Below are positions 4,193 through 14,033 of a stretch of DNA of 14,033 bases, piece after piece (the stretch's first letter is position 1; each line of letters opens with the position of its first letter). The stretch comes from a virus. Below the pieces are notes generated by a model. That model did no database searches and had not been told where the DNA came from. It saw only the letters and a list, made by a program, of their open reading frames with translations. The stretch lies in UHGV virus genome UHGV-0124904. One strand, 5' to 3'. The position numbers and the translations under genes were made by a program.

Positions 4193-5497
4193 CTAAGCCG
4201 CCTGTTTCAGCGGGGACTGTTCGAAGGGGATGTCGGGGAATACGTGGTTATGGACCTGTCGCAGCGCGAAAGCCTGTGCTGCCTGGCTGTTTTGCTTCAG
4301 GTCTTCAAGCGGCGTCAGGTTGAGCTGCACCGTATAAAGATCGCCGCCCTCAATCGGTGGCATGTTCTCCAGGCGGCGCACGTCGTTACGGGACATCCAG
4401 CCGTTCTGCAGCGCACTGGTGTAGTACGCCGCCCGGCCAGCACTGTCGGCGCGCAGCAGGCCTTCTACCGAGAACTCGGCAAAGAGGTCCTCTTCACCAT
4501 TCAGCAGACAGCGGGAAATCTCCTGCTCAATATTCACCAGCAGCGGGCGCAGCGTGTGGGTCAGGAACTGGAGATTCATCCCCTCCAGGCTCGATGCCCA
4601 GCTGCTTTGCTTCGAAGTATGCCCGACCATAAACGGTGGTACGCGGAACCAGCGGCAAATTTCCTCAATACTGAATGAGCGACTTTCCAGCATCTGGGCA
4701 TCTTCAGGGTTCATGGTGACACCCTGATATTTCAGGCCGCCCTCAAGCACCATGATTTTTCCGGCGTTTTTGGAACCGGTAAACTTCGCCATATAACCGC
4801 GAAGTCTTTCCCGCTGATCTTCGTCCAGCGCATTGTCCGATGAGAGAAACCCGGAGCTTTGCAGGCCCTGTTCAAAAATCTTTGCAGCAGATTCTTCAAC
4901 TGCCATCGCGGAGCCGATTACATCCCGACCCGTCCTCATCGGCATCATGCCGCAGACACCATCGAGACCGAACCCACGGATGTGCATCAGGTTCTTTTCG
5001 GGAATAACGCGTTTCTTGCCATCCTCGGTGTACGTGTATTCCAGCCGCCCGGTATCAAGCCGCTTCACCACCATGTTCTGGGGCAGCAGTGGCACCAGCG
5101 ACACCAGCTTATTGCCGATAAACAGCTTCTCGACAAAGGCATTTCCGCGCAGGCAGATGCTGGCCACCACCATCAACATAAAGCGCGACGGCGTCATTTC
5201 CAGGTTGGGACGGCGACAAAGCACCTGGTAAACCGGATGGTTCTGCGCCAGCTTGCGCGAGCCATCAGCCTGTCGGGTGTAAATCTTAACCGGCAGCGTG
5301 GACACCGACTCGCTCAGAAGCCGGACGCAGGCCCAGACTGCCGAAAGCTGGATCGCCCGATCTGCCGTGACGACCTTGCCGCTGCTGCTCGTGCCGTACC
5401 ACTCCTGCCAGAACGTTCCGGTAGTCAGGCTGATGGGCACGCCCAGCCAGTTGAGCAGGGCACTTTTTACCTTGCCCGGCTGCTTACTTTTCTTCAT
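4193..5497 (-). CDS. Portal protein (HK97-family)
   Basis: 434 aa; 1-nt TGATG stop/start overlap with the large terminase gene; size and position between TerL and protease are canonical. Confidence 0.85.
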   Translation of the reverse strand: MKKSKQPGKVKSALLNWLGVPISLTTGTFWQEWYGTSSSGKVVTADRAIQLSAVWACVRLLSESVSTLPVKIYTRQADGSRKLAQNHPVYQVLCRRPNLEMTPSRFMLMVVASICLRGNAFVEKLFIGNKLVSLVPLLPQNMVVKRLDTGRLEYTYTEDGKKRVIPEKNLMHIRGFGLDGVCGMMPMRTGRDVIGSAMAVEESAAKIFEQGLQSSGFLSSDNALDEDQRERLRGYMAKFTGSKNAGKIMVLEGGLKYQGVTMNPEDAQMLESRSFSIEEICRWFRVPPFMVGHTSKQSSWASSLEGMNLQFLTHTLRPLLVNIEQEISRCLLNGEEDLFAEFSVEGLLRADSAGRAAYYTSALQNGWMSRNDVRRLENMPPIEGGDLYTVQLNLTPLEDLKQNSQAAQAFALRQVHNHVFPDIPFEQSPLKQAA

Positions 5498-7227
5498 CAG
5501 AAACCTACCATGATTGGATTTTCAAAGAAGCCGCTCAGATCCTGAGCATCATTACCACCATTGACCAGCATCCGGCTTTTAGCCGTAAACAGTGCAACCG
5601 GTCCGTCAATTTTGTTTTCAGGTGTGGACTTGTTCGGGAAGATGTTGTCGTTTTTGTCCGGCTTAACCGTGACGTTTGACATCATCCACCGCATTACGGG
5701 GTTGTCGTCATGGTGGAACTTGTTGCCGTAAATCTCGGCCTGCACTGATTTCATGGACTCAGAAAGGTTTTTGACCGTCTGTGCGACTTCCACCAGCGGC
5801 AAGCCTTCCTCCGCAAGTGACAGGCTGAACTGCACGGCGCTCCAGGGATCGAAAGCAATCTCCTTGATGTTCTCGCCCTTCACCCACTCCACAATGTCGG
5901 CTTTAATCATGCCGTGATCGATAACGTCCCCGTCAGTCAGCTCGAGATATCCGGCGTCGGCCCACTTCCTGTAAAGCTCTGCAATATGGGCTGGCGCTGT
6001 TTCCAGTCGCCCTTCCGGGATCCAGAAGCGTGGCTGCATATGAGTTTCACCTGCAGGATCGCGCCAGGCTTTCACCGCTGCACAAATATCAATTTTGTTG
6101 GCGAGGTCGACCCCCACCCACAGTGGCCACGCCTTACGCTCAGCTTCCGAAGCAATACCCGGCATTTTTGCCCAGCGGTCCATGTCCATCCAGGCGCTCT
6201 CAGCTGTTACCCAGATGTTCAGGTGCTTGGTAAAGAAGTTCGGTCGCGCCGCGACCTGCTCCTTTGCCTTTTTGGCAAGGCGGCGCATATCGTCCCAGCG
6301 CTTACAGATACCGAGGCCGGGGTTAGCTTTCGGCCAGTTGGCCTCGTCAAAAGGATCGTCGCCATCGTCGAGGGTATAAATCAGGGCAAAGTAGGTGTCA
6401 TCCTCCACCACGCCGCGCAGCACCTTGATGGCGTAATCCCGCTGCTCGTAACAGATGCCCTCTTTATTGGTACCCGCCGTCGTTATTGCGAAAAGCAGGG
6501 ACTGAAGGCGCGCACCGGTAGCTGTTTCCAGAACGTCCCACACGTCACGGGTACGGTGAGCGTGCAGCTCGTCGACAATGCCGCAATGTATATTCAGGCC
6601 GTCGAGGTTATTCGCATCGCTGGAGAGCGGCTCAAACTTAGAGGCCGAATGCTCCTGGTGAATGTTGAGCTTAACGTGACCAAAAAGACGCCCCAGCGTG
6701 CGGGGGGCTTTCTTGATCATGTTCTTGGCATCATCAAAAACAATCCGCGCCTGGTCCCGGGTCGTCGCAGCTGAGTAAACCTCAGCACCACCCTCGCCAT
6801 CAGCACCGGTCATATAAAGCCCGATACCAGACGAAAGTGTGGACTTAGCGTTTTTACGCGCCACCTCGTCATAAGCCGTGCGGAAGCGGCGCACCATGAC
6901 CGTGTCACCGTCATCATCGATCACAGCCAGGCCTGTCATCTCATCAATCAGCGGAACGACGAAACCAAAAATGTTGATCAGGATAAAAACGTGCCAGGCC
7001 ATCAGCGTGATCGGCTTGCCTGCCAGCGCCCCTTTAACGTGTGGGACGAAATTATAAAAATCGAGGATGTGCTGGGCGCGTTCCTCACTGAAGTAGATGC
7101 CGCGCCCAGGCCCATGCTCTAAATCATTAAGAAATCGCTGGCACGCCAGGCGCACCAGTTCGCCAGCAACAATCTCGCCAGACAGCACGCGCTCGGCGTA
7201 CTGAATACCTTCCGAAACCGTTGCCAT
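5497..7227 (-). CDS. Terminase large subunit
   Basis: 576 aa; Walker-A-like VARKNAKST followed by DGEGGAEVYSAATTRDQARIVF and a Walker-B-like GIVDELH, then a C-terminal nuclease-sized domain. Confidence 0.9.
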   Translation of the reverse strand: MATVSEGIQYAERVLSGEIVAGELVRLACQRFLNDLEHGPGRGIYFSEERAQHILDFYNFVPHVKGALAGKPITLMAWHVFILINIFGFVVPLIDEMTGLAVIDDDGDTVMVRRFRTAYDEVARKNAKSTLSSGIGLYMTGADGEGGAEVYSAATTRDQARIVFDDAKNMIKKAPRTLGRLFGHVKLNIHQEHSASKFEPLSSDANNLDGLNIHCGIVDELHAHRTRDVWDVLETATGARLQSLLFAITTAGTNKEGICYEQRDYAIKVLRGVVEDDTYFALIYTLDDGDDPFDEANWPKANPGLGICKRWDDMRRLAKKAKEQVAARPNFFTKHLNIWVTAESAWMDMDRWAKMPGIASEAERKAWPLWVGVDLANKIDICAAVKAWRDPAGETHMQPRFWIPEGRLETAPAHIAELYRKWADAGYLELTDGDVIDHGMIKADIVEWVKGENIKEIAFDPWSAVQFSLSLAEEGLPLVEVAQTVKNLSESMKSVQAEIYGNKFHHDDNPVMRWMMSNVTVKPDKNDNIFPNKSTPENKIDGPVALFTAKSRMLVNGGNDAQDLSGFFENPIMVGF

Positions 7228-7230
7228 TCA

Positions 7231-7728
7231 TCATTTGCGCTTTTTAAGAAATTCATCCAGTGGATCGGCCTCAGCCGGGCCTTTAGCGCCAACCTTGGAC
7301 CGGCTGGCCGGGGTCATGCCGAATTCAGCGAGCATTGCCCTGATGCGCTTCCACGCATCGGCTTTCATTACTGCCGCCGGGTGCGGCTTAATCATCCTGA
7401 TTTCCCGCTCTTTCCCTTCGTCCGGTTCATCCTCGCTGTAGACGGCGTAGGTGTAACCTTCCCGCTCTAACGTCTCGCAGTGATTCCGGTACTCTGTGTA
7501 AGCCTCGATCAGCAGTTCAAGTGCTTTACCGTCCAGGGTGGTCATCACCCCGACAGCATCAAGCTCTTCGCCAATTCGCTTAAACCAGTACTTCCCCATC
7601 TTGTCGAAATGCTTCGGAACTGGGGGGACCCCAGAAGCGGGTTTTGGCTCGTCTTTGTTGACAGCTCGTTTTGATGGGTTCCCCTTCACCAAAGCCAGAT
7701 GTGTCGGGGTTTTCGGTGGTCCTGGCAT
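7231..7728 (-). CDS. Terminase small subunit (P27-family-like)
   Basis: 165 aa, Pro/Lys-rich N-terminus and C-terminal EFGMTPASRSK motif typical of P27-type small terminases; ends 3 nt before the TerL start; AGGAG 9 nt upstream of the ATG. Confidence 0.8.
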   Translation of the reverse strand: MPGPPKTPTHLALVKGNPSKRAVNKDEPKPASGVPPVPKHFDKMGKYWFKRIGEELDAVGVMTTLDGKALELLIEAYTEYRNHCETLEREGYTYAVYSEDEPDEGKEREIRMIKPHPAAVMKADAWKRIRAMLAEFGMTPASRSKVGAKGPAEADPLDEFLKKRK

Positions 7729-7920
7729 AATCGAAAACTCCTATTAATCGATGGTGGGGATCCCCATAAAAAAGTTTTCTAACCTGCGGCGGTGTGAAAA
7801 AAGGTTAGGCGGCGGTCCTTAGCAGTCAGAGGCCTGAACTTTCGACCCGCCCTCCCCTGTTGATGAGAATCGATATCATTCACCCGGAAATGATTGCATT
7901 TGAAATCATTTTACTTTCAT
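7729..7920. promoter_or_regulatory. Candidate cos / packaging-recognition and promoter region upstream of the small terminase gene
   Basis: 192-bp non-coding gap. GCGGCGGT occurs twice (7787-7794, 7809-7816), each preceded by CTAACC or its complement GGTTAG and an A6 run. An AT-rich 7-bp inverted repeat AATGATT..AATCATT lies at about 7889-7912. The HNH-then-TerS context is typical of cos phages. Confidence 0.25.
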
Positions 7921-8121
7921 TCAGTCGAGGTGAAAGTCATCGCTGAGGTTGCGCCGCCGCGCGCTGCTGGCATTGTGCGGGCAGGCGCTGGAGTTATGGC
8001 CTGACTGGCCGTAGTAACCGCAGCGCAGGTTCGCACGGCGGGCTGAGCCTCCCCATGTCTTTGGGCAATTTGCTACGGTGTGCAGCGTCGAGCCGCAGTA
8101 GGTGCAACGCGTATAGCTCAT
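7921..8121 (-). CDS. Small tandem zinc-knuckle-like (CCHC) protein, function unknown
   Basis: 66-aa ORF with ATGA overlap onto the HNH stop. Unit 1 CTYCGSTLHTVANCP fits C-x2-C-x4-H-x4-C; unit 2 CGYYGQSGHNSSACP has the same spacing with Tyr replacing the second Cys. Confidence 0.5.
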   Translation of the reverse strand: MSYTRCTYCGSTLHTVANCPKTWGGSARRANLRCGYYGQSGHNSSACPHNASSARRRNLSDDFHLD

Positions 8122-8468
8122 CGGGTTCTCTCCGTTGCGGTCTTGCGCTTATGGCATGGCCAGCACAGCGATTCGAGGTTGCTGTCGTCGTCTGTCCCGC
8201 CGTGAGCTCTCGGGATAATGTGGTCCACCGTTTCCGCTGGGCGTGGTCTGCTGTTGCGCAGGCACTGCTGGCAGATGTGTCGATCACGCTTAAGGATGCG
8301 GGCACGGATGATGTCCCACTTACTGCCGTAGCCACGCTGGTGGCGGCTCAGGCCGCGCTGATGCTGCTGCCACCCTTCGTTACGGTGGGTTTCGCAGTAG
8401 CCAGAACGATCCGTAGTTGTGCCAGAGCAACCTCGCTTACGGCATGCTCTGGGAATAGCTGCGGGCAT
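8118..8468 (-). CDS. HNH endonuclease (packaging-associated)
   Basis: 116 aa; N-terminal Cys cluster (CRKRGCSG...YCETH) and HNH core VDHIIPRAHGGTDDDSNLESLCWPCHKRKT; located just upstream of TerS as in HK97-like cos phages. Confidence 0.9.
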   Translation of the reverse strand: MPAAIPRACRKRGCSGTTTDRSGYCETHRNEGWQQHQRGLSRHQRGYGSKWDIIRARILKRDRHICQQCLRNSRPRPAETVDHIIPRAHGGTDDDSNLESLCWPCHKRKTATERTR

Positions 8469-8480
8469 GGTTGTCGCTCC

Positions 8481-8510
8481 AAAAAAAAGCCACCAGCAGA
8501 TGCCAGTGGC
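8481..8510 (-). terminator. Intrinsic terminator downstream of the 88-aa orphan gene
   Basis: Hairpin GCCAC(8489-8493)...GTGGC(8506-8510) with a 12-nt loop, followed on the minus strand by T8 (plus A8 at 8481-8488). Confidence 0.5.
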
Positions 8511-8532
8511 TATTGTTCAAACCTGTTACTTT

Positions 8533-9343: not shown

Positions 9344-9754
9344 CTAGCAATCAGCGTCCGGGCGCGCAATAGCTCGACAAGCCCACATACAGGCTTCCTG
9401 CATTTTGGTGCGCGCGATCGACAAACTACGCAGAGCATCATCAATTTCACACGCCTGCTCAGTACTCAACATCGCTGGCCCATTACGGAGAGCCAACAGC
9501 TCACCGCGTTCGGTATCGAGCAGGCTGCAGAAGTAACGACTGACGCCCTTCATACGGTTCATGCGCTCAATGTCGCCAGGTGTTAACGTGCGGTAGCCCT
9601 TAACGGTGCTGCCATCCTGCGGTTGTGCTTCGTTCATTGATTTACCTGTGATTGATGGGCCAGCTTCGCGACGCTTCACAGCGTGGCTAACCGTGTTGTG
9701 CAGAGTGGAGAACATCATCAGGCGCTCTTCTTTAAAGCGCCTGGGGCTGCTCAC
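9344..9754 (-). CDS. Hypothetical protein translationally coupled to Rz1
   Basis: 136 aa; ATGA overlap with the Rz1 stop; C-terminus has a Cys cluster (CMWACRAIARPDADC). Start uncertain (internal Met candidates). No family recognised. Confidence 0.4.
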   Translation of the reverse strand: MSSPRRFKEERLMMFSTLHNTVSHAVKRREAGPSITGKSMNEAQPQDGSTVKGYRTLTPGDIERMNRMKGVSRYFCSLLDTERGELLALRNGPAMLSTEQACEIDDALRSLSIARTKMQEACMWACRAIARPDADC

Positions 9755-9990: not shown

Positions 9991-10231
9991 ATTTCACCAC
10001 GTCGCGGGTTATGGTTCGGTAAATAATCCGGCCTTCGTCGCTGGCTTGAGCCGCCTTTTGTTCGACAGGCTGAAATGCCTTTTCTGCTTTGGCGCGCTTA
10101 GCAGCGGCAAGCCCGTTGATTTGTTCAGCGTGGGCGTACCAGCCATTCCGGTACCGTAGCTCGCCATAACCAATAGCAAGCAGCATGCCCACGAGAGCGA
10201 TCTGCAGTATCGCTCGAAGGCTAAAGGTCAT
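9866..10231 (-). CDS. Inner-membrane spanin (Rz-like)
   Basis: 121 aa; N-terminal transmembrane segment LRAILQIALVGMLLAIGYG followed by a charged Ala/Lys/Glu-rich region; immediately downstream of the endolysin with 11-nt overlap. Confidence 0.75.
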   Translation of the reverse strand: MTFSLRAILQIALVGMLLAIGYGELRYRNGWYAHAEQINGLAAAKRAKAEKAFQPVEQKAAQASDEGRIIYRTITRDVVKYVQDPNRTVCAFDDESVRLRQQAIDAANSISGFDAEAVQGK

Positions 10232-10724
10232 GTTTGCTCTCCGCCATGCACATCGAGCGCTCCATCTCTCGCCGGTTCTGGAGGCCTTTCCACTTCATAC
10301 CACCAGCGTAAACCCAGCGCCGCATCTCTTCGCACGCGCCGTCGTGATCGCCTTTATTCAGTTTGCGCAGCAGTGTGGACTTCGAGAACGCATCAGAACC
10401 AACGTTAAAGACAAAGCTGTAAAGTGCAGCACGCTGATATTCACCCAGAGGTACTTTGACAAGATCGTCTACCGTGCGTTTTGCTGGCTGAAGGTCTTTC
10501 CACAGCAATTGGTCACACTCGCGATCGGTATACTTCTTCCCTCTCACGATGTCGCGGCCCGTATGGCCATCGCAGACAGTCCACACGCCGGCGACGTCTT
10601 TATACGCTTCGTACTTCCGCCCCTCTACGCCATCCTGCCCACCGAGAAACAGCGAGGCGATCAGCATGGCACCGCCACCAGCAGCGGCGATGAGTTTGTT
10701 ACGCAGGCTACTGGTCATTGGCAT
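10221..10724 (-). CDS. SAR endolysin (T4-lysozyme-like muramidase, phage 21 R-like)
   Basis: 167 aa; Gly/Ala-rich signal-anchor-release domain LIAAAGGGAMLIASLFLGG; catalytic E-x8-D-x5-T spacing in VEGRKYEAYKDVAGVWTV; close resemblance to P21 R as recalled (GVWTVC.GHTG, ALYSFV.NVG, STLLRK.N.GD, RRW.YAGG..WKGL). Confidence 0.9.
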   Translation of the reverse strand: MPMTSSLRNKLIAAAGGGAMLIASLFLGGQDGVEGRKYEAYKDVAGVWTVCDGHTGRDIVRGKKYTDRECDQLLWKDLQPAKRTVDDLVKVPLGEYQRAALYSFVFNVGSDAFSKSTLLRKLNKGDHDGACEEMRRWVYAGGMKWKGLQNRREMERSMCMAESKHDL

Positions 10725-10964
10725 TTATTCATCTCCGACTTTAACTGCAGGTCCGTACTTCTCAAGCGCCTTAACCTGTGCATTGGCGACCTTGCGTTTG
10801 AAATACCAGTTAATGAGCCCGGTAACGATTATCCCGGCAATGCCAGCCAGCACACCGACGGCGCTCCACTCATCAGGACTTAGTTTTGTCAGAACACCGT
10901 TCAGGATGGTGCCGCCGGAAGTGCCTAACGCGACACCGGTTACGAGTTTGCTCATGAGGGACAT
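10725..10964 (-). CDS. Pinholin (class II holin, S21-like), possible dual start
   Basis: Resembles the P21 pinholin (GVALGTSGG..LSPDEWSAVGVL..WYFKRK). Track start is a GTG at 10973 abutting GGAGG; the ATG at 10964 has GGAGGT 7 nt upstream and a second ATG follows 9 nt later (M-S-L-M-S-K), a holin/antiholin-like dual-start arrangement. Confidence 0.8.
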   Translation of the reverse strand: MSLMSKLVTGVALGTSGGTILNGVLTKLSPDEWSAVGVLAGIAGIIVTGLINWYFKRKVANAQVKALEKYGPAVKVGDE

Positions 10965-11099
10965 GTACCTCACCTCCGATTATGTCGGGGCGCTTTGTGA
11001 AGTGATTGAAGAAAAGGTTGTTACAGAAACTGATAGCAAAAACTTTAACCACACTGCGGGTCATCGTTGCTCTGGCTTCAAACTTTTGCAGTGAATGCT

Positions 11100-11162: not shown

Positions 11163-11588
11163 TTAAGCTGCAGAGGAAACAGTTGGAACGCAGTACTTTT
11201 GGTAATAATTTTTTATTACTGGCCTAACATGAGGTGACAGATTGAACCCACCCAGGATGCGTTGAAACGTTCCTTCGCTGCAAGGATCATGAATTCGTAT
11301 GTCCCCAGCACTGACTCGCTGGATAACCGAATCAGCACCAAAAATTTCTGCTCGCCTATAAAAGACATAACTTGGATGCCGAACAAAAGGATGATCACCA
11401 ACATTCAACAGACAAGAAGAGTCGGGTTCGATTCCGTCAGCTATAGAGGTTAAATTAACGGCAAGGAAAGATTCTTTTGCAAGTTTGGGATAAAATACGG
11501 GGTCGTTACAAATGAAGAACAAATGCTCCTTCGAACCAGAAAGGAGCATAATCGTGCCTTTTTGTACTGGGCTGAAGTCCGCTGTCAT
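11163..11588 (-). CDS. Hypothetical protein, candidate toxin/effector partner of the Panacea-domain gene
   Basis: 141 aa; ATGA start/stop overlap with the upstream Panacea-domain gene; GC-poor; no family recognised. Internal Met14 is an alternative start. Confidence 0.6.
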   Translation of the reverse strand: MTADFSPVQKGTIMLLSGSKEHLFFICNDPVFYPKLAKESFLAVNLTSIADGIEPDSSCLLNVGDHPFVRHPSYVFYRRAEIFGADSVIQRVSAGDIRIHDPCSEGTFQRILGGFNLSPHVRPVIKNYYQKYCVPTVSSAA

Positions 11589-12160
11589 TTCAATCCGTAA
11601 GCAATTGAATCTAGTTCGGAGAATTCTCTCATCCTGTCAGATAAATGTCTAACAAGTTCTTCAGGTTTTCCAAGCGCCCGGAACACATTTTCAGGATTTA
11701 TTGTAAACGCACCGCCACGTGGATCGGTCCATTCAGGACATTTTGAATGGGTATAATCCCTGATCTCCCATTTACTCATCTTACCGAAGCTTGCATAGAC
11801 GGCATCTAGAATTGAAATCTCAGCCTCACTGAGTTCATCTAAATCATCACGACTTAAGCTGTCACATAAAAGCTTAAGCTCATAATTGTCAGCATCAGAA
11901 ATCCAATTTTTCCAACCTTCTTCGCCCGTTTCTGTACCATTCATGAGGTCTAAAGAACGAGATAAGACTGGACCATGCGGCATGGCCACCATGCGGTCAC
12001 CTGTGATAGGCTCACCGAAACGGTCCATTGATTCTCTATCAGAGAGGTACATCAATTTCATGAGCTTAAGGTATGGCATGCGTCCACCGCCTTTCGACAG
12101 TAGATAGGCGGCCATCTGAGCCACTCTTTCTTCGCAAAACATATTAGCCCCCCTACTCAT
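11585..12160 (-). CDS. Panacea (DUF4065)-domain protein, likely PanA/SocA-type antitoxin
   Basis: Hallmark LKLMKLMYLSDRESMDRFGEPITGDRMVAMPHGPVLSRSL (K-L-x-K-L-x-Y...G-x-P-I...GPV pattern) plus a C-terminal ...W...DYTHS..PEW segment. Probable true start is Met7 (ATG at 12142..12140, AGGGGGG 6 nt upstream), giving 185 aa. Confidence 0.7.
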   Translation of the reverse strand: MSRGANMFCEERVAQMAAYLLSKGGGRMPYLKLMKLMYLSDRESMDRFGEPITGDRMVAMPHGPVLSRSLDLMNGTETGEEGWKNWISDADNYELKLLCDSLSRDDLDELSEAEISILDAVYASFGKMSKWEIRDYTHSKCPEWTDPRGGAFTINPENVFRALGKPEELVRHLSDRMREFSELDSIAYGLK

Positions 12161-12782: not shown

Positions 12783-13616
12783 TTAGAGCAAACTTTGCAC
12801 GCTGGTTACTTTCTTGAGTTCGGTATCTGCGTTGCTCTCCTCCTGAAAGCATTTCGTCACCAGACTTTCATAAAACGGCTTCCAGCTGTATCGCCAGGTA
12901 CGATCAGGAAGGCTGTCCAGTTCGGCCAGAACGCCGCGATACGCTACTGATGATTTCGGTCTGCTGTATCCTCGCCCCTCACAGCGTTTGCACTCCTTAT
13001 AAACCGGCGCGCCCTGCAACTCAGTTTGCTTTCGGTCGAGGGTTTGACCAGATCCGCCACACTGGCAGCGCTTACTGATCTGGCCGGTTCCGTTGCACTT
13101 GCCGCACAGCTGGTGGTCCACATCCTTTACCTCGCGGAAAACTTCAAAATCAGATGGAGACTGGCCCAGATCCTTGGCAAATTGAGGCAGGCGCATCGTG
13201 TAATGGCTTTTGGTGATCACACTGGTTCTGGTAATGAAGCCCTTGCCCCGGCATTTCTGGCAATTGATACTGTCAGCAGCTGATGAGGCGTAATCCTTGA
13301 ATGCGAATCTGGCGAGGATCCGCATACAGAGAGGGAATTTTTTGCCAGCTGCTTTACGTACGGCCATTGGTGCGTGCTGCTTGGCGTATTCTGTCAGCCA
13401 GTTGATAGCGGCTTCTTTATCCTGTGGGCTGATGCCAGCCTTCCCCAGATACATGGCAAGACCGATCCCGGCGTCGGCTTGGGTCATGCCCAGCGCCGCC
13501 ATGATGTCGGTTACCGTTAACTGATCGCCCGCGGTTGCGCGCACGCTATCAGAGATGTGCATCCCTTTCGGTGCAAAAAACTTTAAAACTCCGTCCAGAT
13601 TCATAGCGTTCTCCAC
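12783..13616 (-). CDS. Putative late-gene antiterminator (Q-position protein) with DnaJ-type CxxCxGxG zinc-finger repeats
   Basis: 277 aa with CQKCRGKG, CGKCNGTG, CQCGGSG and CKRCEGRG repeats. Assigned mainly by position (after a nin-region-like nuclease, before a terminator and the lysis genes); sequence-level identity to Q was not verified. Confidence 0.45.
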   Translation of the reverse strand: MENAMNLDGVLKFFAPKGMHISDSVRATAGDQLTVTDIMAALGMTQADAGIGLAMYLGKAGISPQDKEAAINWLTEYAKQHAPMAVRKAAGKKFPLCMRILARFAFKDYASSAADSINCQKCRGKGFITRTSVITKSHYTMRLPQFAKDLGQSPSDFEVFREVKDVDHQLCGKCNGTGQISKRCQCGGSGQTLDRKQTELQGAPVYKECKRCEGRGYSRPKSSVAYRGVLAELDSLPDRTWRYSWKPFYESLVTKCFQEESNADTELKKVTSVQSLL

Positions 13617-13621
13617 TCCGT

Positions 13622-13945
13622 CTACGCCAGTGCGCCGATGGCCAGCGCCCGGTCTAATGTTTTCAACAGCAGCTCCGGCTGCGTGCCGTACTTCGCTTCA
13701 AATGCCACAGCGTCAGCGTGCAATTCGTCGTGATGCTCTCTGCACAGAGGTATCACAAACAGGTCGTGTGCCTTTGTACCCATTCCACCCTGCCCGTGGC
13801 CAATCAGGTGGTGGGGGTCGTCAGCTTGCTTGTTACAGCAGACGCACGGCTGGGCCTTAACCCATCTCGTGTATTTCTCATTCACCCAGCGGCGACGCTT
13901 GGGTTTAAGCATGAAGGATTCCGGCGTCTCTGGGTCAACCTTCAT
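13622..13945 (-). CDS. YbcO/NinG-like small Cys/His-rich putative nuclease (nin-region protein)
   Basis: PCVCCNKQ...HHLIGHGQGGMGTKAHDLFVIPLCREHHDELH resembles the YbcO-family motif as recalled. Track start is a GTG at 13951; an ATG lies at 13945. The frame stays open to the window edge (14033), so the true start may lie outside the window. Confidence 0.5.
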   Translation of the reverse strand: MKVDPETPESFMLKPKRRRWVNEKYTRWVKAQPCVCCNKQADDPHHLIGHGQGGMGTKAHDLFVIPLCREHHDELHADAVAFEAKYGTQPELLLKTLDRALAIGALA

Positions 13946-14033
13946 TGCCACTATCTTTTTCGCTTTCTCCTGTACCAGTTGTTTGGCGGGTAATGCCGGA
14001 ACAATATCGCTTTCACGTGTTACCGACTGGTGG

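Follow-up and report, generated by a model that had tools for sequence, protein, structure and literature searches.

A Tandem CCHC Zinc-Knuckle Gene Between the HNH Endonuclease Gene and cos of an HK97/P27-Like Prophage

Introduction

The CCHC zinc knuckle is viewed as a signature of RNA-binding proteins in eukaryotes and of the nucleocapsids (NC) of retroelements, and a literature search turned up no account of a CCHC-knuckle protein from phages or prokaryotes. The stretch of viral DNA analyzed here (UHGV virus genome UHGV-0124904; 14,033 nucleotides, hereafter the window) raises the question of what a 66-codon open reading frame (ORF) with two apparent knuckles is, and what it does, between the genes for an HNH endonuclease and the small terminase (TerS). 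An earlier sequence-only reading had regarded the ORF as a genuine gene and had suggested an accessory role in cos recognition or packaging. These claims are considered below in the light of the homologs of the ORF, their neighborhoods, and their relation to known systems.

Genomic Context of the ORF

The window is a minus-strand late-operon stretch of an HK97/P27-like prophage, and the genes described here all lie on the minus strand. It encodes the antiterminator Q (12783-13616), holin (10725-10973), lysozyme (10221-10724), the HNH endonuclease (8118-8468; Pfam HNH, E 5e-16), a P27-family (Terminase_4) TerS (7231-7728), the large terminase (TerL; 5497-7227), and the portal (4193-5497), together with a protease and the major capsid protein. 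An accessory region lies between the lysozyme and HNH genes.

Other small genes accompany these modules. Upstream of Q, a DUF968/HNHc-like nuclease-domain protein (13622-13951) is the second HNH-type gene in the window. Between Q and holin, a gene with a SocA/Panacea antitoxin domain (11585-12160) overlaps a downstream 141-aa ORF (11163-11588) by 4 nt, and this pair (11163-12160) may form a toxin-antitoxin or abortive-infection system. Within the accessory region, a 136-aa ORF (9344-9754) matches the Pfam Acb2/Tad1 hairpin domain (E 1.4e-16), making its product a candidate anti-CBASS/anti-Thoeris nucleotide sponge.

The ORF under study, here called ZK (zinc-knuckle), occupies 7921-8121, starts with ATG, and encodes a protein of 66 aa (7.3 kDa, pI 9.3). 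A 192-bp intergenic region separates it from TerS. As previously described, ZK lies on the minus strand and its start shares 4 nt with the HNH gene (ATGA, 8118-8121). A GGAGAG box resembling a Shine-Dalgarno ribosome-binding site (8128-8133, minus strand) falls within the terminal part of the HNH coding sequence, 6 nt upstream of the start codon of ZK. A terminator-like hairpin with a T-run (8488-8511, minus strand) immediately precedes the HNH gene, and no sigma-70-like promoter was predicted between this hairpin and ZK. Given the usual translational coupling to the packaging HNH gene, ZK would be made with the late packaging genes.

Knuckle Motifs and Domain Identity

The first knuckle, CTYCGSTLHTVANC (residues 6-19; 8065-8106, minus strand), is the exact C-x2-C-x4-H-x4-C that had been claimed, with ligands C6, C9, H14, and C19, all at least 90% conserved. 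It is the sole exact match to this pattern in the six frames of the window, where shuffled windows average 0.013. The second knuckle, CGYYGQSGHNSSAC (C34-x2-Y37-x4-H42-x4-C47; 7981-8022, minus strand), has a mutated second ligand. An acidic/aromatic C-terminal tail, DDFHLD (7924-7941, minus strand), follows, in which D61 and D66 are at least 90% conserved.

In the family consensus, MSYxRCTYCGSxLHTVANCPKTWGGSARRANLRCGYCGxSGHNSxACPHNASSxRRRxLNDDFxLD, both C-x2-C-x4-H-x4-C knuckles are complete. A check of Cys/His conservation had been proposed, and across 30 close and 39 distant homologs, the latter 43-69% identical to the reference member P0036, all eight ligands proved invariant or at least 90% conserved. 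Distant members carry the unit R-C-x-Y-C-G-x3-H-x4-C-P-K-T-W-x-G-x-A-x-R twice in tandem, then an equivalent D-x-F-x-x-D tail. Judging from these alignments, the members of this widespread family, small and basic proteins of 60-75 aa from tailed phages, are tandem duplications of a unit of approximately 28 aa, composed of a CCHC knuckle and a CP-x-T-W-G-G-S-A-x-R extension, with the acidic/aromatic tail appended.

Identification of the units as CCHC knuckles is supported by profile comparisons. The best matches in a PDB profile search are all CCHC knuckles, namely AIR2 (2.5e-5), Moloney murine leukemia virus (MoMuLV) NC (4e-3), HIV NC (0.02), and Lin28 (0.04). In Pfam, 32 of the 39 distant members match AIR2-like_ZnK4 (PF21759) at E<0.01, and one of them, P0036, scores above the threshold of this family (29 against a cut-off of 27). 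The window copy falls below every Pfam cut-off (PF21890, 18.9 against 27; PF00098, 10.7 against 20.8), and UniProt automatically annotates the form of the protein with an intact second knuckle as a "CCHC-type domain-containing protein." Weak Pfam zinc-ribbon matches prompted a reading of the protein as a zinc ribbon built from two CxxC pairs, which is less likely given the tandem complete CCHC units and the stronger knuckle-profile matches. An AlphaFold2 model based on a 30-sequence alignment is of low confidence (pLDDT 53).

The protein has no significant match in PHROGs, NCBIfam, or PADLOC, and no Pfam, PHROG, or NCBIfam family covers the phage ZK family. From these comparisons, the domain is a known one and the phage protein family that carries it is undescribed. 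The family profile also picks up CCHC-knuckle proteins of eukaryotes (apple, tea, Dunaliella, fish, and sawfly). No fusion of ZK to HNH, terminase, or portal was seen in the top 150 library matches, and the longer proteins are either eukaryotic multi-knuckle proteins or members of a separate, apparently bacterial membrane-protein family.

That family, seen in metagenomes (P0102, P0115, P0122, P0130, P0137, and P0159), has five to six tandem knuckles of the form E-C-R-H-C-G-S-x-D-H-x-S-x-x-C-P-H followed by hydrophobic, apparently membrane-spanning stretches. Some members carry an additional C-terminal region that looks SH3-like by eye, and no name or annotation is attached to any of the six proteins.

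Homologs and Selection

Relatives of the ORF are numerous. A tblastn search found ORFs of 83-85% identity in eight N15-like Klebsiella phages, phiKO2 among them, and, in Pseudomonas phage RSP, an unannotated ORF with 49% identity. The protein database holds 29 clusters at 90% identity, from Escherichia, Klebsiella, Salmonella, Enterobacter, Serratia, Yersinia, Leclercia, Cronobacter, and Citrobacter, and IMG/VR holds relatives on 198 viral contigs. An exhaustive profile search returned 330 representative-library proteins at E<=1e-3, of which about 100 are small (58-75 aa), phage-like, and align end to end. The sole named relative is phiKO2 Gp64 (YP_006644.1) from a linear-plasmid prophage of Klebsiella oxytoca, an ortholog of the same length (66 aa) and 83% identity that is likewise the last gene before cos. 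Both knuckles of Gp64 are intact, and its annotation reads only "Gp64."

Comparison with phiKO2 is informative about what is being conserved. The ORF is the only nucleotide similarity (72%) between the window and the phiKO2 cos junction, with the flanking HNH, cos, and TerS sequences unaligned. The two ORFs differ at 55 positions, 42 of them third codon positions; 42 of 45 synonymous sites are changed and thus saturated, whereas dN is 0.09 and the protein remains 83% identical. Over 67 distinct coding sequences, the median dN/dS is 0.057 (Nei-Gojobori; 974 pairs with dS above 0.3), and frame-specific conservation reaches down to 45-50% identity across many taxa.

The alternative, that the ORF arose by chance in a GC-rich region or marks a cis-acting DNA element instead of a protein, could appeal to the long ORFs in other frames that overlap it and to its absence from PGAP annotation in RefSeq E. 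coli genomes. However, a dN/dS of about 0.06 and saturated third positions in a protein that stays 83% identical, together with frame-specific conservation to 45-50% identity in many taxa, exclude both a chance ORF and conservation of a DNA element, and the probability left to this alternative is vanishingly small. Conservation of the ORF merely as part of the cos DNA is ruled out by the same saturation. The ORF is a genuine phage protein-coding gene under strong purifying selection, and the earlier argument against a chance reading frame, made from the register of the motif, is borne out by the near-invariance of the motif positions and by the dN/dS.

The HNH-ZK-cos segment is carried by 5 of 5,426 complete E. 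coli genomes. In two of these genomes that were inspected (loci L003, 2852-3239, and L004, 2876-3264), PGAP annotates nothing between HNH and TerS, where an intact ZK ORF is present. RefSeq annotation, on the evidence of these two genomes, misses the ZK gene systematically.

A Mutated Zinc Ligand in the Window Copy

The tyrosine in the second knuckle is particular to the window. Codon 37 (8011-8013, minus strand) reads TAC (Tyr) where relatives have TGC or TGT (Cys), the result of a single G-to-A change at window base 8012. Among 85 ZK loci, Tyr37 occurs in the window only, and the other 84 have Cys. In the 25 closest relatives, the encoded protein has Cys37 and is otherwise the same; C37Y is the only non-synonymous difference between the window and locus L004, and it is the only one beside 10 synonymous changes in the comparison with E. 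coli PCP06021. The exact C37Y protein is recorded on two contigs (E. coli MWQ92622.1), as against 61 contigs across Enterobacteriaceae for the Cys form, and other ligand substitutions are singletons only.

The sequence-only reading had noted that the second unit keeps the knuckle spacing with Tyr at the second ligand, which is correct for this copy. It does not describe a conserved degenerate position, because both knuckles are complete in the family consensus and all eight ligands are near-invariant, and Tyr is thus not a feature of the family. Established work on retroviral NC leads one to expect that a knuckle missing one of its ligands no longer binds zinc. Since C37Y falls on a zinc ligand, the second knuckle of the window copy is probably non-functional.

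The Neighborhood of cos and the Optional Presence of ZK

In the enterobacterial elements, both HK97/P27-like and N15-like, ZK is always the last gene before cos. The HNH gene lies directly upstream of ZK in 79 of the 85 loci, where the measured gaps are -4 nt (the ATGA overlap), and within 1.6 kb of ZK in 84, RSP alone lacking it. In five N15-like loci, including phiKO2, HNH is 0.6-1.5 kb upstream of ZK, and in phiKO2 three genes stand between Gp64 and the HNH gene gp60. Downstream, TerS follows ZK at 107-200 bp and belongs to one of three P27-family clusters that are unrelated to distant from one another. The ZK-TerS intergenic region aligns across all three TerS clusters, phiKO2 included, and two cos-region variants pair with ZK.

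The two ends of the phiKO2 record offer a guide to the position of cos, the last base lying 70 bp past the Gp64 stop codon and the first 62 bp ahead of TerS. The junction of the phiKO2 virion genome ends aligns with the GGACCGCCGCC box (7808-7818, minus strand), which places the putative cos cleavage region of the window at about this box. On this correspondence, no gene follows ZK at the right end of the virion chromosome. Next to the box comes a T-tract enclosed by an inverted repeat, CTAACCT/AGGTTAG, which spans 7779-7808. In HK97, the TerS site is located 15-29 bp past the cut (PMC11331095), and the position of the repeat resembles it, so that the repeat is a candidate small-terminase binding site by analogy. 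An AT-rich and nearly perfect palindrome, AAATGATTGCA TT TGAAATCATTT (7888-7911), lies 10 nt beyond the stop codon of ZK and may act as a cosQ-like element or as a site to which a protein binds. It is kept in the ZK-positive relatives.

Two isolated phages, mEp235 and vB_EcoS-733R5, have an HNH 74-75% identical to that of the window and a homologous cos region, yet no ZK. Their TerS proteins are 69% (mEp235) and 90% (733R5) identical to that of the window. The alignment shows a clean indel: mEp235 misses essentially only the ORF and retains the palindrome, while 733R5 misses both the ORF and the palindrome. More broadly, among 158 phage records with the HNH family of the window, at least 150 are without ZK (at most 8 with), P27, ST64B, SfV, and mEp235 being among those that lack it; SfI, SfII, and SfIV also belong to the 158. 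In the phage collection, ZK is found only in eight phiKO2-like records and RSP. ZK thus does not co-occur with HNH and terminase wherever these occur. It is optional, closely related viable phages do without it, and the suspicion that the HNH-TerS-TerL set does not include it as standard is supported by the at least 150 of 158 HNH-family records without it. In the mEp235 record (PV340540.1; locus L164, 2132-2479), the HNH gene itself is unannotated and three small hypothetical ORFs are called over it, whereas older records annotate HNH.

These observations bear on the proposal that ZK is a cos-recognition or specificity subunit, which would bind cos DNA or the HNH nickase and direct or extend the specificity of cos cleavage. 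Its constant place between HNH and cos in enterobacterial loci, the ATGA coupling to HNH, and the conserved cos region after it all fit such a role, and there is a precedent in the small zinc proteins encoded beside cos-proximal HNH genes (PMC3592412). Small zinc-binding (zinc-ribbon) proteins in this position were noted in Gram-positive phages as Group 4, and a role in cos-cleavage specificity was proposed for them (Xu and Gupta, 2013; PMC3592412). ZK is likewise a small Cys-rich protein directly beside a cos-proximal HNH gene. However, mEp235 and 733R5 share the HNH family, homologous cos, and TerS types without ZK; at least 150 of the 158 HNH-family records lack the gene, including P27, ST64B, and SfV; ZK combines with three TerS clusters and two cos-region variants; phiKO2 keeps it three genes away from HNH; and most distant homologs have no HNH beside them. 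The natural "deletions," the mixing of TerS types, and the HNH-less homologs disfavor a role in cos specificity, which is now very unlikely, and the cos-recognition part of the earlier proposal is weakened accordingly.

An example among the Gram-positive phages is Bacillus phage phi105, whose ORF20 shares with ZK the order HNH, small Cys-rich protein, cos, TerS, TerL, and portal, and whose gene also overlaps the end of the HNH gene. Unlike ZK, ORF20 is 108 aa long, with CxxC pairs and a long helical tail but no CCHC knuckles. It was rejected as a ZK homolog, with an hhalign probability of 0.7% and phi105 absent from the tblastn matches. The HK97 gp74-type system of HNH and terminase resembles the window in its layout of HNH, cos, P27/HK97-type TerS, TerL, and portal. 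As HK97, P27, ST64B, SfV, and mEp235 work without ZK, the latter is an add-on to the HK97-type system and not a component of it.

Distant Homologs and Their Neighbors

A further 77 viral loci and 6 MAG loci were examined, the latter from Rhodoferax, Hydrogenophaga, Aquabacterium, Nevskia, and Gemmatimonadales. In most distant loci, ZK abuts or overlaps its upstream neighbor, and the gap to a neighbor on the same strand is -4 or -1 nt in 23 of 49 cases. The upstream neighbors include TerL (5), HNH (3), portals (at least 4), head-morphogenesis proteins, and tail tube or minor tail proteins (4), as well as a baseplate hub, an endolysin, a DNA polymerase, UvsY, and Acb1. Downstream are found head-morphogenesis, portal, head-closure, tape measure, and TerL genes, P27-type TerS (2), integrases, and helicases. 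Large ORFs within 3.5 kb encode Mu-type portals (5), Mu-F (3), TerL (at least 5), and capsids. Most distant homologs have no adjoining HNH, including those of phages with Mu-type portals.

The family is therefore mostly, although not only, embedded in packaging, head, and tail modules. Since homologs also occur in replication modules and beside integrases or Acb1, the packaging link is not universal; at locus L086, the homolog closes a replication module (PolA, PD-(D/E)XK, SNF2). The packaging association may only reflect the tolerance of late operons for small insertions. In phage RSP (MK803322; L002, 3992-4189), the unannotated homolog is 65 aa long, has a shortened first knuckle (C-x2-C-x3-H-x4-C), and follows a DUF6011/DnaJ-type zinc-finger protein, with no HNH or terminase nearby. 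On a metagenomic phage contig (L087, 2215-2685), ZK stands between a portal gene and a cold-shock-domain (CSD) gene, so that the two modules of Lin28 and plant CSDPs are here encoded separately.

One reading of these variable surroundings is that ZK is an RNA-binding chaperone or regulator. Like the majority of cellular proteins with CCHC knuckles, it would bind single-stranded RNA, here the long late transcript, and so influence how that RNA is translated, how stable it is, or how far it is read through. AIR2, Lin28, and NC, which the profile matches most closely, are RNA binders, ZK takes varied positions inside late operons, and at L087 it is directly followed by the CSD gene. The CSD neighbor is a single case, however, and the strict cos-proximal position in the enterobacterial lineage would be left unexplained. 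An RNA-directed function is considered unlikely.

A second reading holds that ZK is a moron-like accessory gene acting against the host or its defenses, for example by binding a nucleic acid of an immune system, and has nothing to do with packaging. Like a moron, ZK is present or absent between collinear relatives, as in the mEp235 indel, and its position varies in distant phages; one homolog adjoins Acb1, and the accessory region of the window holds the Acb2/Tad1-like gene. Against this, no promoter or terminator belongs to ZK alone, its translation is coupled to that of a packaging gene, no match to PADLOC or to known anti-defense proteins was found, and its neighbors are predominantly structural and packaging genes instead of early ones. 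A function directed at the host or its defenses is judged unlikely.

Comparison With Retroviral and Eukaryotic Knuckles

The resemblance of ZK to known CCHC knuckles (PF00098, PF21759, the Lin28 knuckle 2 family PF21890, and the NC of HIV-1 and MoMuLV) extends beyond the C-x2-C-x4-H-x4-C spacing to the Gly after the second Cys, the aromatic residue inside the knuckle, the presence of two units, the basic linker, and the small basic character of the protein. The differences are equally clear. ZK adds the CP-x-T-W-G-G-S-A-x-R extension to each knuckle and an acidic D-D-F-x-L-D tail, its linker is 14 aa long as compared with 7 in HIV NC, and it is a stand-alone gene of double-stranded DNA (dsDNA) tailed phages, outside Gag or any RNA-processing protein. 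Rather than being encoded in Gag and released by a protease, ZK is an independent ORF with its own ATG and Shine-Dalgarno-like box in the late operon of a dsDNA prophage. In the absence of a Gag context, ZK is not a retroviral NC.

The phage proteins could nonetheless form a nucleocapsid-like family that acts on the viral genome during packaging or head assembly, as a counterpart and possibly a relative of the retroviral NC and eukaryotic knuckles. Such a protein would bind the single-stranded cohesive ends or nicked DNA at the terminase-portal assembly, or would be packaged with the DNA. This proposal as a whole is regarded as quite unlikely.

Proposed Role

The best overall explanation, held with moderate confidence, is that ZK is a real but optional two-knuckle gene, that its product is a probable nucleic-acid binder, and that it serves as a non-essential helper in packaging or head assembly. 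As to function, the coupling to HNH and the TerL and portal neighbors make an accessory part in packaging or head assembly the best single guess, though a tentative one.

Under this explanation, each knuckle would bind one zinc ion, and the protein would probably bind exposed bases of single-stranded nucleic acid, in the manner of retroviral NC, Lin28, CNBP, and AIR2. The acidic tail might dock on a partner protein or fold back onto the basic knuckles. As an example, ZK might keep GC-rich DNA that is nicked or single-stranded in place, either at the terminase/HNH complex or at the DNA ends, and it would not determine cos specificity.

Significance

For the window itself, the conclusion is more modest: ZK is a genuine but optional gene, and the copy found here is probably a damaged one. 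Beyond it, stand-alone two-knuckle proteins constitute a sizeable and strongly constrained family in tailed phages of Proteobacteria and beyond, one that frequently carries no annotation at all. If ZK acts on DNA or RNA in late infection, it would represent an unrecognized accessory layer on HNH/terminase cos packaging and, if so, would also offer a simple bacterial model for the biology of zinc knuckles and nucleic acids.
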